64,000 nt of DNA from Vampirovibrionales bacterium (GTDB lineage: Bacteria; Cyanobacteriota; Vampirovibrionia; Vampirovibrionales; JAJTHC01). This document shows, one piece after another, positions 41,519 through 50,180 of the stretch. The notes beneath the pieces were generated by a model. That model had not been told where the DNA came from, made no database searches, and saw only the letters and a program-made list of their open reading frames with translations. Positions within the stretch are counted from its first letter, which is position 1; the number at the start of each line of letters is the position of its first letter. Location of the stretch: positions 799 through 64,798 of the forward strand of contig JBKDRU010000007.1 of assembly GCA_046341215.1 (NCBI GenBank), given 5' to 3'. Position numbers and translations under genes: made by a program.

Positions 41519-41833
41519 ATGACACTTTCCTTTCCTTCACTTAACCTTGGTTCTCCTGCGTCGGGTCTTGCCCAAGAAACGAATGCATTAGAAATGCAAG
41601 CGTTGCAATATACCCAAGCTCGCCCTCAAATGCAAGCTCCTGCTCCACAAGTACAGGCGGATTCACTCTTTCGTAGTGGTTTACCTGTTGCTTATTTGCC
41701 CACTCAATTTACTAATACAGTAGGTTCTTTTGCTCCACCCTTACCGCAAAAGGTAAGTTATATGTTTGTCGCTCCAGCAACTGGGCAACAATCGATGAGC
41801 GGTGGAAGTAGCGGGCAACAACAACGACGTTGA
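41519..41833 (+). CDS. Gln/Pro/Ala-rich small protein (104 aa), unknown
   Basis: Low-complexity ORF at the head of the unusual cluster. Followed by a perfect bidirectional terminator. Confidence 0.45.
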   Translation: MTLSFPSLNLGSPASGLAQETNALEMQALQYTQARPQMQAPAPQVQADSLFRSGLPVAYLPTQFTNTVGSFAPPLPQKVSYMFVAPATGQQSMSGGSSGQQQRR

Positions 41834-41880
41834 TAGCTTTAAACGTCTGCCTGTTTCTTTGAAGACATCGGCGTGACACT

Positions 41881-41919
41881 AAAAAACGGCTTTTGAGATA
41901 TTTCTCAAAAGCCGTTTTT
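41881..41919. terminator. Bidirectional terminator (aaaaaacggcttttgagata/tttctcaaaagccgtttttt)
   Basis: Perfect 16-bp stem flanked by an A-run and a T-run. Lies between convergent genes. Confidence 0.75.
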
Positions 41920-47033: not shown

Positions 47034-47210
47034 AAAACGCTGTAATTGTGCCTAAACGCATTTATGGGGACAAGGGAACTCATCGGCATAAAGTCTTGTG
47101 CATGAATCCTTGTGCTAGCAGAAGAAAGCCTATTTAAAAGCCCTTGTAGAGTATTTTAAAGAATCGTCGTGCTTAGTCATCGATTTCAATCGCATCCGCC
47201 AATAAAAAAA

Positions 47211-50180
47211 CTAAACAGGCACAACGCTCGTCAAAGTCGGATCAATTAAACGCTTGCCCGCTTTTTCAAAGACGATTGAAAGCACTTTGCGATTTTCAAT
47301 ATCTACCACAGAATGCACCACGCCTACACCGTACACCTCATGCTGTACTTCCATACCAGGTGAATAATCTACAACCGTTTGTGTAGGGGTAGGGAGCATA
47401 GGCACAGGCTCTTGATATTCGTACAAAGGCACGTGTGCAACAGGCACGCCATCTAAAGAATAGGGCGGGGTAATGGCAGGCATGTGAGAAGCGTCTGCAA
47501 GCGTCCGCATGGGAGCCATCTGATTATATTGATTGCCCTTTAAAGGCACATAACCACTGTCCATTTCGGCTAACTCTTGTTGAAAAGACTGAATCAAGTC
47601 GTCTTCCGCTAATGACGCTTCATCATAAGCTGGAACTAAGAATTCAGGCATTCCTGTAGGCACCTGTTCTTCAGCAGTTACGGAAACATCTTCTTCAACG
47701 ACAGGGGAAGCTTCGTGCGTCATTTCAAAAGAAAAGCCCGCGAGCGGATCTTCAGGGTCTATTTTAGGAACGGTATTGGCCTCTTCATGCCCCATAAAGT
47801 CTTCAGAAGAAACAGGGTATTCGCTTACCATATCATTAAATTCAGTATGCACGGCTTTTTCAATAATGTTTAAATCAAAGCTAAAATTGTCCAAGTCTTC
47901 TAATTGTAAGCTTTCGACTTCAACGGCTTGATGCACAGGTAAGCTCACATTCCCTGCTTGAACGGCGTCAAAGACGCTGGTCATTTCTTCTAGTTGTTCT
48001 TGGGGATTAAAATGGCTTGGCGCACTAGGCAAAAAGGCATCGTCTTCAGTAGCTTGAGGGGAACGGCCTTCAATGATCGGTTCATTCAATAAGTCATCAT
48101 AAAATCCTTCGCTTTCAAACTCTAAAGATTCTTCAAGCGCCAAAGGACTTTCTTCTGCGGTGAAATCCTCGGTCAAATCCAAGCTAAAATCAGGCACATC
48201 TAAGTGAGCTTCAGGGGCAAGTGGGCTTGACATCAGTTCTAAAGAAGCTTCGACAGGCTGTTCTGAAGAAAGAGTTTGCATAGTTTCTAGAGTCGATCGA
48301 TCTATAATGGGACCTAGTAAACTACTGGGTAGTAGATCTGGTGTAGGCTCCTGAAAACTTTCATCAGGAGCGGGTACATAATAGGGATCAAAATCCTGCC
48401 CAAACATGGACTCATCTTGATACAAGGTTTGTTCCAAGGCTTCTTCGGTGCTTTGAGGCTTACGTTTTAGCTCTTCTTTACCGTCAATAATGTATTCCAT
48501 GTGGAGTACGGCTTTTTCAGGCTCATCAAAACCCGAATCGGCAGATTCATCCAAGTAAGGGGTGACGTCTTCTAGCATGGAATCAGGCAAGCAAGGGTGA
48601 ATGTGATGTGTACTGTCTATTTCTTCGGACGTATCTATAGGGGCTGGATCCTCTTCGCCCTTAGAAGGATTCAACAAAGGGGCTTCAAGAAAAGTTTGCC
48701 ATTCTTCAGGCATTTCGCCTAAAATTGAATTGTAATGATGCACTTCTTCTTCAGCGGGATGGGCTTGAAGGGTTTCTAAAACGGGGGGGTTGTCTGAAGT
48801 TTTCAAATCAGAAGAAAAAGAGCTTAAAACGTCATCATGCGATTCATCGAAAGAACGATCCATTGCTTTATAGGGAGCGGCTTCAACAGAAGGGGGCTCG
48901 ATGGCTTGAAACGGTGTGGAAGACGGATCTTCTATAGGTTTTTCGGATTCAGATGAGCGTTTCAAAGGAGCGAACACTTCTAAAGGGGGCAAAGCAGGAA
49001 AATCACCGAATAGAAGGGGGATGCCCAGCGTCAATTCACTTAAGAATAAGGCTGTGGATTGACTGGCATTCACCTGTAAGAGATGTTGCTCACCCGCTTT
49101 TAGAGCGTCCGCCATAGGCTCTTTGTGTAAAGGGTGCAGATTCACAACATTCACGCCTTGTTCCAATAGCTGATGCACTTCATGTTCAACTAAAGTGGGT
49201 AAAGTCTTGTTACGACTAATATTACCAACCAGTATATTGCTTAAAGGCAACATACTATGACGCAACGCTTGATTCAAAAGTTCCCAAATCCACGCATGAA
49301 AATCAACGCTTACACTAGAAAGATCCAGTACAAGGAGCTTACCTTCACTTTCGGCGTGCTTCAGTTCTTGCATAAAATGGACGCTTTGTTGATGTTCCCC
49401 TTCGCAAAAGACTTTGCTCGCCTTACATTGATTCAACAAGCGAAAGAGCAAGCCACTTTGGGTGCTTAAAAAAACTTCTTCGAGTTCACGCAAACTTTGA
49501 ACCCTGAAAATACGTTGCCCTGCAATGCTGTTCCATTGTTTCCAAGCTTCTTCGGCTTGTGTGGGAGCTAAGGCTTTCGTCCAGGACTCAATGAGACGCT
49601 CCACCCCCCATGCTTCCACAGGAAATGCGTGGGTACGCCCCAGTTCCACCAAGTGAATCCCCGGTAATTGACTGCGTTTTAAAAGCCCGTAGCCATCGAA
49701 AAGCAAGGGGTGCATGCCTTCTTGACGTGCATTTAACAATAGGGAAAGTAAGAGTTCAAGTCCTCGTTCTTCTTGATCCGATTCCAAACGGAGTTGCCCG
49801 TAAACGTCACGCATTAAAATACGTAGGGCAGGGAATTGTAGATCGATAAGGGACGCTTCTGGTGTATTCAATAGAAGCGCTGCGAGTCGCTCAGCAGAAA
49901 CACGAAAGAAAGACTGCACATTTAAAACAGGCACACCATAAACAGGGCTCAAATGCAGGCGAGCTTCTGTATTTGTGGCGCTTTCAATGTCCGTAATTTT
50001 CAAGAGTTGACGGCGATTTTGGGCATCCACGGCAAGGACAAGGGCATTGAGCACCAAGGCATCGGCTTGAGCGTGGGGAATTTCAAGCAATACGTTTGAG
50101 TTGTGACGGCTAAAGTGAATAAAGTCCAACGCCTCTGGCATTAAATCATCTAAGTTTAAGGCATTTAATGCAAAGCTCAC
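47211..50180 (-). CDS. 989-aa protein: ~450-aa folded N-terminal domain, ~480-aa hyper-acidic (D/E/P/S) disordered region, C-terminal UvrD-C-like Tudor-fold domain
   Basis: C terminus VQHEVYGVGVVHSVVDIENRKVLSIVFEKAGKRLIDP matches the pattern of the UvrD/PcrA C-terminal domain (xRHxxFGxGxVxxxxGxxxxxVxFxxxGxKxL). The N-terminal domain is unrecognised. Confidence 0.6.
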   Translation of the reverse strand: MSFALNALNLDDLMPEALDFIHFSRHNSNVLLEIPHAQADALVLNALVLAVDAQNRRQLLKITDIESATNTEARLHLSPVYGVPVLNVQSFFRVSAERLAALLLNTPEASLIDLQFPALRILMRDVYGQLRLESDQEERGLELLLSLLLNARQEGMHPLLFDGYGLLKRSQLPGIHLVELGRTHAFPVEAWGVERLIESWTKALAPTQAEEAWKQWNSIAGQRIFRVQSLRELEEVFLSTQSGLLFRLLNQCKASKVFCEGEHQQSVHFMQELKHAESEGKLLVLDLSSVSVDFHAWIWELLNQALRHSMLPLSNILVGNISRNKTLPTLVEHEVHQLLEQGVNVVNLHPLHKEPMADALKAGEQHLLQVNASQSTALFLSELTLGIPLLFGDFPALPPLEVFAPLKRSSESEKPIEDPSSTPFQAIEPPSVEAAPYKAMDRSFDESHDDVLSSFSSDLKTSDNPPVLETLQAHPAEEEVHHYNSILGEMPEEWQTFLEAPLLNPSKGEEDPAPIDTSEEIDSTHHIHPCLPDSMLEDVTPYLDESADSGFDEPEKAVLHMEYIIDGKEELKRKPQSTEEALEQTLYQDESMFGQDFDPYYVPAPDESFQEPTPDLLPSSLLGPIIDRSTLETMQTLSSEQPVEASLELMSSPLAPEAHLDVPDFSLDLTEDFTAEESPLALEESLEFESEGFYDDLLNEPIIEGRSPQATEDDAFLPSAPSHFNPQEQLEEMTSVFDAVQAGNVSLPVHQAVEVESLQLEDLDNFSFDLNIIEKAVHTEFNDMVSEYPVSSEDFMGHEEANTVPKIDPEDPLAGFSFEMTHEASPVVEEDVSVTAEEQVPTGMPEFLVPAYDEASLAEDDLIQSFQQELAEMDSGYVPLKGNQYNQMAPMRTLADASHMPAITPPYSLDGVPVAHVPLYEYQEPVPMLPTPTQTVVDYSPGMEVQHEVYGVGVVHSVVDIENRKVLSIVFEKAGKRLIDPTLTSVVPV

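Follow-up and report, generated by a model that had tools for sequence, protein, structure and literature searches.

The locus and its five genes

We analysed a 64,000-nucleotide stretch of DNA (the window) and, within it, five open reading frames (ORFs) at 41519-50180, whose coordinates agree exactly with those given in the original prediction for this region. The first of them, g104 (41519-41833, forward strand), is a predicted ORF for a small Q/S/A/P-rich protein of 104 amino acids (aa). The other four lie on the reverse strand. They are two paralogs, named here GDPH-A (41941-43500, 519 aa) and GDPH-B (43779-45362, 527 aa) after a motif that both contain, then g470 (45621-47033), which encodes a conserved, non-repetitive protein of 470 aa found only in Vampirovibrionales, and finally a gene with a GTG start (47211-50180) for an acidic protein of 989 aa. 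FlgH and FlgI are also encoded in the window, and the named homologs of the five proteins are labelled 'Vampirovibrionales bacterium', 'Vampirovibrio sp.' or 'Candidatus Melainabacteria'; from this we conclude that the DNA comes from a flagellated bacterium of the Vampirovibrionales (Melainabacteria), an order that includes the algal predator Vampirovibrio chlorellavorus (PMC4451040). A contig that carries the five genes and is identical to the window was present in one public run (locus L001).

None of the five proteins reached a curated Pfam or NCBIfam threshold, and searches of PADLOC and of PDB sequences with the same five proteins gave no match above threshold. The single hint in the Pfam and NCBIfam scans was a sub-threshold match to PcrA_UvrD_tudor at residues 942-978 of the 989-aa protein. 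To this extent the earlier statement that every gene here is unrecognisable holds, but the GDPH paralogs turn out to carry domains of the VWD/DUF1521 type. The description of the set as five low-complexity proteins was likewise correct in part: the ORFs are real, but g470 is an ordinary, well-conserved and non-repetitive protein, the GDPH proteins hold a folded domain of 190 aa, and the 989-aa protein combines a conserved N-terminal domain of ~395 aa with motifs in its acidic region that are invariant down to ~20% identity.

The GDPH proteins and their partners

Each GDPH paralog consists of four parts. In GDPH-A a polar N-terminus is followed by a Pro-rich linker, a VWD/MIIA-like domain (aa 163-352, nt 42445-43014, reverse strand) and an Ala/Lys/Asp/Glu-rich tail; in GDPH-B an N/S/T/Y-rich N-terminus and Pro-rich repeats of 13 aa precede the domain (aa 248-440, nt 44043-44621, reverse strand), and the protein ends in a Ser/Lys/Gly-rich tail. 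Over 192 aa the two proteins share 63% identity; outside this stretch they are unrelated. The predicted self-cleavage sites are the GDPH motifs G173-D174-P175-H176 of GDPH-A (42973-42984, reverse strand) and G258-D259-P260-H261 of GDPH-B (44580-44591, reverse strand), with the cut expected between Asp and Pro in both. The linker and the tails of the window paralogs are recent tandem DNA repeats, which in GDPH-B occupy 44643-44783 (linker) and 43789-43928 (tail). These tails had been described as poly-Lys, which does not fit either protein: the Ser/Lys/Gly-rich tail of GDPH-B has a net charge of ~+12, the tail of GDPH-A is approximately neutral, and long tails are found in just 4 of 17 aligned GDPH sequences, namely GDPH-A, GDPH-B and the closely related P0010 and P0011. 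No signal peptide or hydrophobic window of 19 aa was detected in GDPH-A or GDPH-B, and no lipobox, sorting signal or membrane anchor was found in these paralogs.

A word-indexed search returned 18 clusters of the GDPH family. Counting one genome per species, the family was found at 27 loci, nearly all of them in metagenome-assembled genomes (MAGs) of Vampirovibrionales, with 2-4 copies per genome; the two outliers belong to one 'Cyanobacteria' bin and one 'Planctomycetes' bin. The common plan is a polar N/Q/S/T/Y-rich N-terminus without a hydrophobic signal, a Pro-rich linker and a domain of ~190 aa that starts with VAANEHSxYWGDPHVADADR and ends with GVxSDGVMPTGILGEGFDAD...TYK. According to the family alignment, each of the 15 complete domains carries WGDPH[VI], always at domain position 13-14, and 13 of 16 domains, including both from the window, are free of cysteine. 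Acidic (D+E) and basic (K+R) residues number 29 and 35 in the domain of GDPH-B, and 30 and 19 in that of GDPH-A.

Modelled by AlphaFold2 from an alignment of 16 sequences, the GDPH-B domain came out as a confident, all-beta structure (pLDDT 87.6, pTM 0.87). When it was compared with the PDB by Foldseek, the top 30 matches were all VWD domains, among them those of MUC5AC, MUC2, MUC5B, VWF, FCGBP and Cypridina luciferase (E 1.8e-5 to 1e-2, TMq 0.5-0.62, ~180 columns), and the next matches had E>0.1; the predicted model thus has the VWD beta-sandwich fold. Remote members of the family provide a second line of evidence. The protein at L037 scored 29.6 bits against DUF1521, in a match that spans the GDPH region and passes the cut-off of 23.6, and 21.7 bits against VWD, which just misses the cut-off of 22.9. 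The protein at L036 scored 20.5 bits against DUF1521 (cut-off 23.6) and also came near the VWD cut-off, and one closer GDPH member matched DUF1521 at E 0.018. Alignment of the family profile to L037 by hhalign gave a probability of 99.7% (E 1e-26, 168 columns), and by this profile comparison L037 is an unambiguous homolog of the window GDPH domain. What is established for the family from sequence and modelling is its predicted fold, the conservation of its motif and its homology to the known domains via such intermediates.

DUF1521 is the MIIA (metal-ion-inducible autocleavage) domain of the type III-secreted proteins NopE1 and NopE2 and of VIC_001052; it folds upon Ca2+ binding and then cleaves its own chain behind the Asp of GDPH (PMC6506597). 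When GDPH is cut autocatalytically in the VWD domains of eukaryotes, what is left is a reactive Asp-anhydride, which can esterify sugars, as happens in the inter-alpha-inhibitor heavy chain (PMC8267560). The window domains resemble VWD domains (MUC2, MUC5AC, FCGBP, RGM, SUSD2) in their beta-sandwich fold, in the placement of GDPH at the N-terminal edge of the domain and in an 'xxDGxxFxFxGxGxYxLL'-like strand pattern after GDPH, which is clearest in the remote proteins at L036 and L037. They differ from them in having no C8/TIL companion modules and no signal peptide, and sequence identity is just 10-14%. With the MIIA proteins (NopE1/NopE2 of Bradyrhizobium and VIC_001052 of Vibrio coralliilyticus) they share a bacterial domain of ~170-190 aa with a GDPH site cut, or predicted to be cut, between Asp and Pro, as well as the absence of a Sec signal and an origin in bacteria that attack or colonise eukaryotic (plant or algal) cells. 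In contrast to MIIA, the motif lies ~13 residues into the conserved window domain rather than ~44, and the window domains are predicted to be well folded, unlike the disordered apo form of MIIA. To our knowledge, no injectisome is known in Vampirovibrionales. Since GDPH occurs at the same position in every complete member and 13 of 16 domains are cysteine-free, we read the GDPH paralogs as a probable third, cysteine-free lineage of the VWD/MIIA self-cleaving module.

Next we considered how these genes may be regulated. The sequence TTGTTACGAA occurs exactly twice in the 64 kb, each time upstream of a GDPH paralog (43657-43666 for GDPH-A and 45486-45495 for GDPH-B, both on the reverse strand), and in each case it is followed by CAATT-N17-TTTATT. 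A composite element, TGTTAC[AG] with CAAT-N16-19-TTTAT within 80 nt, is found three times in the 64 kb, only upstream of g104, GDPH-A and GDPH-B, and the regions upstream of g470 and the 989-aa gene are without TGTTAC/CAAT-TTTAT elements. In other genomes, TTGTTAC[GA]A[AT] (at most one mismatch, at most 300 nt upstream) precedes 11 of 27 non-redundant GDPH genes, compared to 7 of 311 other ORFs. Inverted repeats in three of the five promoters had previously been taken as a hint of co-regulation. The motif counts bear this out for g104, GDPH-A and GDPH-B, and they support the idea that these three genes form a co-regulated group with a common promoter type. The same TGTTACA half-site as at g104 and the GDPH genes is also present elsewhere in the window: two direct copies, 20 nt apart, at 60752-60778 (reverse strand) precede uvrB (58390-60444) by ~300 nt, with a good TTTACA-N17-TATAGA promoter after them.

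At g104 the element takes the form of a perfect palindrome, TGTAACA-atct-TGTTACA (41377-41394, forward strand), ~125 nt upstream of the start of the gene, and it was found at the same distance in L011, L014 and L015, making four genomes with the window. The g104 protein itself had no Pfam or NCBIfam match; its orthologs at these three loci are 43-50% identical, and the gene adjoins a GDPH gene in each. In an alignment of the four genomes, the ~145 nt from the palindrome to the g104 ATG (41377-41518) are almost invariant, although the protein that follows is so much less conserved. This 5′ region carries a TATAAT, a sigma-54-like TGGCAC-N5-TTGT and a hairpin, GGAAC-N8-GTTCC, whose stem is conserved and whose loop is variable among the four genomes. 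It had no match in Rfam, and the four sequences are too alike for covariation; the region may serve as a regulatory leader or encode a small RNA. The sigma-54-like element was set aside, being a single instance of a pattern that is no commoner in the window than in shuffled sequence. Between yciI and the g104 promoter, at 41245-41345, there are two G+C-rich inverted repeats (CTCCCTCTCCCTTAGGGAGAGGG and CCTCCTCCCTAAGGGAGGAGG), which are probably terminator-like or REP-like hairpins.

In order to see which of the five genes travel together, we compared the gene maps of 39 loci. g104 and a GDPH gene are adjacent in the window (and in its exact copy L001), L011, L014 and L015, and the longer order HemN-YciI-g104-GDPH is kept in L011 and L014; the L014 ortholog of GDPH-A is 62% identical to it over the full length. 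A GDPH gene adjoins g470 in the window (and L001), L008, L018 and L026, which represent two locus types, although not in L009, and in L018 g470 is flanked by GDPH genes on both sides. It is plausible that g104-GDPH and GDPH-g470 are functional pairs. The homologs of g470 form 8 clusters, 46-96% identical; g470 had no Pfam, PDB or PADLOC match, and its family profile gave only noise against the PDB.

Several further features of the GDPH loci were observed. Genes for TPR proteins recur beside GDPH genes, either directly upstream (288-300 aa; L016, L019, L020 and L022) or nearby (552 aa; L008, L018, L026 and L030). Some type III substrates have TPR proteins as their chaperones, but the repeat is too common to count as evidence. 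A conserved Q/M/A-rich protein of 105-109 aa accompanies the aminotransferase-GDPH locus (L008 7053-7382, L018 7540-7857, L026 9874-10203, L027 9875-10204). It has weak sub-threshold matches to the EspB PPE domain and YfbU, and it takes the position of a small partner, as g104 does, with an unrelated sequence. Directly before the Pro-rich linker, both paralogs have a hydrophobic, helix-like motif, NTLLLLFAGYF in GDPH-A (aa 102-112) and NNLLLLLGAYF in GDPH-B (aa 160-170), which may bind a chaperone or a membrane; amphipathic motifs of a similar kind stand at the C-termini of the L036, L037 and P0025 proteins (...LMNLMQFFQAFFGFRI, ...FLNYLKRFFRYFLR). The protein of L036 (18-3650), from a bin labelled 'Cyanobacteria bacterium', is a GDPH-family member of 1210 aa with long arrays of VQVGTEQ-type and PIYKEKPVY-type repeats ahead of its VWD/DUF1521-like domain.

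Two observations concern the assemblies. MAG contigs often end in or beside GDPH genes (L011, L013, L014, L029, L030 and L035), as would be expected of assembly breaks at paralogs that are multi-copy and bear repeats, and the copy numbers and adjacencies seen in MAGs are therefore underestimates. One MAG with three GDPH paralogs, JBEISK01 (L011, L022 and L024), is titled 'Gammaproteobacteria bacterium'; its HemN and YciI are 97% and 94% identical to those of the window, and the public label is probably wrong.

The acidic 989-aa protein

The family of the 989-aa protein is small. A word-indexed search found 9 clusters, and an exhaustive HMMER search of 1.84 billion representative proteins with the N-terminal profile again yielded 9 clusters (at 50% identity). 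Its members have 947-1276 aa, and the named ones are all from Melainabacteria or Vampirovibrionales. A three-part plan is kept in every member, down to ~20% identity. In the window protein (all parts on the reverse strand) it comprises an N-terminal domain (aa 1-395, 48996-50180), in which a predicted beta-barrel at ~aa 29-94 is followed by a helix-rich region, an acidic Pro-rich linker (~aa 396-930, 47391-48995) and a C-terminal Tudor-like domain (aa 942-978, 47247-47357). The extreme acidity that had been noted for this protein was confirmed: residues 411-930 contain 22.7% D+E and 3.1% K+R, with a net charge of -102, and the whole protein has a net charge of -118. Across the family, the net charge of the linker ranges from -64 to -122. 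The linker is also rich in short conserved motifs, of which HPCLP[DE] is present in 17 of 17 members, and YxSILGxMPxxW, FESEGFYDDLL, PEDPL..F.FEM and ITPPHSLD are widely kept.

The C-terminal module follows the pattern G-x-[RKEQ]-V-x-H-x-x-Y-G-x-G...G-K-R-L-[IL]-D-P. Against PF21196, the PcrA/UvrD Tudor model, the window protein scored 16.8 bits at full length and 22.6 bits as an isolated segment of 62 aa (cut-off 23.9). Among close family members, 8 of 8 matched PF21196 (best E 1.2e-5), 8 of 8 matched DUF3553 and 3 of 8 matched CarD_TRCF_RID; among remote members, 6 of 7 matched PF21196 at E 0.013-0.076, which makes 14 of 15 overall. In the PDB, the C-terminal profile of the family found the C-termini of UvrD (4c2t and 9dqs), and the model of the module has three strands (943-950, 954-961 and 964-971; pLDDT <50), compared to five in a Tudor/SH3-like barrel. 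Mutation of H681, W684, K712 or L714 in PcrA reduces its binding to RNA polymerase (RNAP) (PMC5397179). The equivalent residues here, H947, Y950, K976 and L978, as placed by motif register and UvrD alignment, are invariant in an alignment of 10 sequences. The original prediction had assigned the end of this protein to the UvrD/PcrA C-terminal Tudor-like domain. Profile comparison agrees, in that the quoted sequence is present and the matches recur throughout the family. Thus the Tudor-like identity of the C-terminus is supported by sequence profiles at the family level, with scores just under threshold.

Like the Tudor domain of PcrA/UvrD (PF21196) and the related RNAP-interaction domains of CarD and Mfd, the end of the 989-aa protein is a predicted beta-rich C-terminal module of ~45 aa after a flexible linker, and it shares with PcrA/UvrD the motif G-x-x-V-x-H-x-x-[YFW]-G-x-G...G-K-x-L. 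The PcrA/UvrD module, however, is attached to an SF1 helicase, whereas the 989-aa protein has no detectable helicase or P-loop domain. A polyanionic disordered segment joined to a small folded docking domain is also found in the RNAP delta subunit of Firmicutes and in HubP/FimV. The 989-aa protein has no homology to these, is much larger and carries short hydrophobic-acidic motifs inside its linker.

For the N-terminal domain, a full-length AlphaFold2 model from 10 sequences was used as a weak pointer to the barrel. In a Foldseek search with this model, whose one moderately confident part is the barrel (~aa 29-94), HerA chains were the top 15 matches (80-113 columns, E 3e-3 to 1.5e-2), with the barrel matching the N-terminal barrels of HerA hexamers, followed by those of V/F-ATPases, and matches were weak overall (3e-3 to 5e-2). 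The N-domain had no Pfam, PDB-sequence, PADLOC or NCBIfam match. A Walker A motif ([AG]x4GK[ST] at the homologous position) is present in 0 of 17 family members, and hhalign against E. coli YjgR gave a probability of 0.3%. The resemblance to HerA/FtsK-HerA ATPases and to the HAS-barrel of V/F-ATPases is confined to the barrel; both the Walker A motif and the profile similarity of HerA/FtsK-HerA proteins are missing in this family. We also considered whether residues ~130-395 are a degenerate HerA ATPase core, which became no more than a speculation after the PDB profile search, Pfam scans, PADLOC and hhalign against YjgR all came back empty. At the limit of the data, the model hints at a HerA-type barrel without an ATPase site.

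In the compared loci, the 989-family gene stands beside ProRS, an S1-domain gene, flgBC/fliEF or a nucleoside transporter, and outside the window and its exact copy L001 it never adjoins a GDPH gene or g470. Two large neighbours of 967 aa (L008) and 801 aa (L002) were examined as possible homologs of the 989-aa protein and dropped, having no detectable homology to it. The proposal of a contiguous five-gene unit is therefore not sustained by the synteny comparison: its conservation is only partial, and in relatives the 989-aa gene occurs in unrelated contexts.

Interpretation and alternatives

We consider the interval to be most likely a juxtaposition of two unrelated novelties, the GDPH group and the 989-aa gene, in a rearrangement-prone stretch of the chromosome, and we give this explanation, including the mechanisms that follow, a probability of roughly 0.55. 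The GDPH group would consist of g104 and two tandem paralogs of a family expanded in Vampirovibrionales, often together with g470. Since the GDPH proteins have no Sec or Tat signal and do have polar disordered N-termini and Pro-rich linkers, we infer that they leave the cell by a non-classical route, which could be type III export via the flagellum or the type IV system that the order is known to have. They would fold outside the cell, probably upon Ca2+ binding, and a self-cut between Asp and Pro would then separate the N-terminal and linker part from the VWD domain, leaving a reactive C-terminal Asp; their place of action would be the cell surface or the prey. The 989-aa protein would be a cytoplasmic scaffold, with a Tudor domain that docks on RNAP or on another partner with a PcrA-type motif, an acidic, motif-bearing linker that recruits or displaces partners, and an N-domain starting with a HerA/ATP-synthase-type barrel that could not bind ATP via a P-loop. 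The GDPH group and the 989-aa gene would be neighbours by an accident of genome arrangement.

A number of points weigh against this explanation. The window GDPH proteins had no match to Pfam VWD (PF00094) or DUF1521 (PF07481) at E<=10, and the link of their domains to VWD/DUF1521 is structural and transitive. In eukaryotes, VWD domains are rich in disulfides, which keep the two halves linked after cleavage, whereas the window domains are bacterial and contain no cysteines. MIIA, with 42 acidic and 21 basic residues among its 171 aa, is strongly acidic and stays disordered until Ca2+ is bound (PMC6506597), whereas the window domains are neutral to basic. For the 989-aa protein, PF21196 scores fall below the curated cut-off in every member. 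The full-length model was poor (mean pLDDT 34, with 55-72 in the barrel), so that confidence is low in the coordinates of the HerA-like barrel as well as of the Tudor strands, and the HerA-like reading of residues 100-395 is without sequence support. By an informal count, moreover, 4 of 6 independent contexts of the 989-family gene have flagellar genes no more than ~8 kb away, which could mean a role other than at RNAP. Lastly, cleavage, metal (Ca2+) dependence, Sec-independent export and a prey-contact role of the GDPH proteins, together with RNAP binding by the 989-aa protein, are all steps that we infer by analogy.

Of the alternatives, the one that survives best takes the GDPH proteins as surface or adhesion proteins, for example components of the Vampirovibrio attachment pad, in which the VWD-like domain binds or polymerises and GDPH either stays uncleaved or serves covalent attachment to polysaccharide instead of freeing an effector fragment. 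VWD domains are polymerising, adhesive modules in mucins and VWF, and the Pro-rich, extensin-like linkers resemble wall-spanning spacers. A role at the surface or in prey contact would also suit a family that is present in several copies, evolves fast and varies in its tails. On Chlorella, V. chlorellavorus makes a pad whose composition is unknown (PMC4451040), and the sugar-esterifying Asp-anhydride of cleaved VWD domains (PMC8267560) would suit such a material. The absence of a signal peptide, lipobox, sorting signal or membrane anchor, however, is hard to square with surface proteins, and there are no cysteines to join a cleaved domain or to build mucin-like polymers. The nearest bacterial relatives (MIIA/NopE1) are injected effectors (PMC6506597). 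We regard this alternative as unlikely.

The flagellar neighbourhood of the 989-family gene suggests another alternative, that of a polar or flagellum-associated hub with a HubP/FimV-like function, in which the linker would recruit clients and the Tudor domain would bind one of them rather than RNAP. HubP and FimV are acidic landmark hubs, and multivalent scaffolds are typically built on long polyanionic linkers in which several short motifs are deeply conserved. The flagellar genes differ from one context to the next: flgH/flgI in the window (56288-58173), fliOPQR in L002 (18.6-21.4 kb), flgB/C-type rod genes and fliE/fliF directly adjacent in L007 (54-3359), and a gene for a FliMN_C protein in L038 (1536-3431). 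Yet none is found near the family gene in the L004/L005 or P0038 context, and the proximity count takes no account of the flagellar gene density of these genomes. The 989-aa protein has no membrane anchor or LysM/FimV motif, and the residues of its Tudor module match the RNAP-binding surface of PcrA. We therefore judge a hub to be rather unlikely, somewhat more so than an adhesive role of the GDPH proteins.

A more elaborate account joins the boldest forms of both halves. Co-regulated VWD/MIIA proteins, with g104 and g470 as partners, would be exported by the flagellar type III or type IV system, fold and self-cleave on algal prey, and form Asp-anhydride bonds to the prey wall as the material of the attachment pad, while the 989-aa family would be an RNAP-docking factor, a ring-forming, ATPase-dead relic of HerA with polyanionic arms that mimic DNA. 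Taken as a whole, this account appears improbable.

The original prediction saw the five genes as one module in which opposite charges bring together the 989-aa protein and the Lys-rich GDPH tails, as a chaperone, nucleoid or condensate system. The five genes do lie side by side in the window, as they do in the identical contig L001, the charges are opposite (-118 for the 989-aa protein and ~+12 for the GDPH-B tail), and in different genomes GDPH, g470, the 989-aa gene and large hypothetical genes tend to be found close to shared housekeeping genes (ProRS, Lpd and the S1-domain gene). Against this, the 989-family gene stands apart from GDPH and g470 genes everywhere except in the window and L001, neither it nor g470 shares the promoter motif common to g104 and the GDPH genes, and basic or long tails occur in 4 of 17 GDPH members, that of GDPH-A being nearly neutral. 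The compartments also differ in all likelihood: VWD/MIIA domains are extracellular or secreted, and a Tudor domain and a HAS-type barrel are cytoplasmic features; the GDPH proteins are most likely exported, and the 989-aa protein looks cytoplasmic. The charge-complementary pair fails because its partners are unlinked across genomes, the tails are not conserved and the two sides probably occupy different compartments, and we hold the single module to be very improbable. Least probable of all is a horizontally acquired phage, plasmid or defence island, an origin that would account for genes that cannot be recognised, for although GC is 0.42-0.44 at 42-46 kb against a typical 0.46-0.49 elsewhere in the window and HerA-type proteins are common in defence systems, the five families are confined to Melainabacteria/Vampirovibrionales in chromosomal housekeeping contexts, PADLOC gave no match save for the Tudor-like end, and there is no integrase, tRNA or repeat boundary nearby, the sole tRNA lying at 26.5 kb.

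Under the favoured explanation of two unrelated novelties, two known kinds of module are involved, one being the self-cleaving VWD/DUF1521 domain and the other the Tudor module for RNAP interaction, and what is new lies in the variant of the one and the architecture of the other. Predation by Vampirovibrio is a practical problem in algal cultivation, and its attachment and attack are known from genome inference only; a multi-copy, co-regulated and probably self-cleaving VWD/MIIA family offers testable candidates for prey-contact factors. The GDPH family links the GDPH cleavage of eukaryotic VWD domains, the bacterial MIIA effectors and a probable third, cysteine-free lineage, and this link bears on the evolution and the minimal needs of the Asp-Pro self-cleavage module. 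In the 989-aa family, a PcrA-type Tudor domain appears to be detached from its helicase and fused to a polyanionic, motif-rich linker, which is a new architecture. If it does bind RNAP, this family would be a new class of transcription-associated factor, found only in the non-photosynthetic sister lineage of the cyanobacteria.

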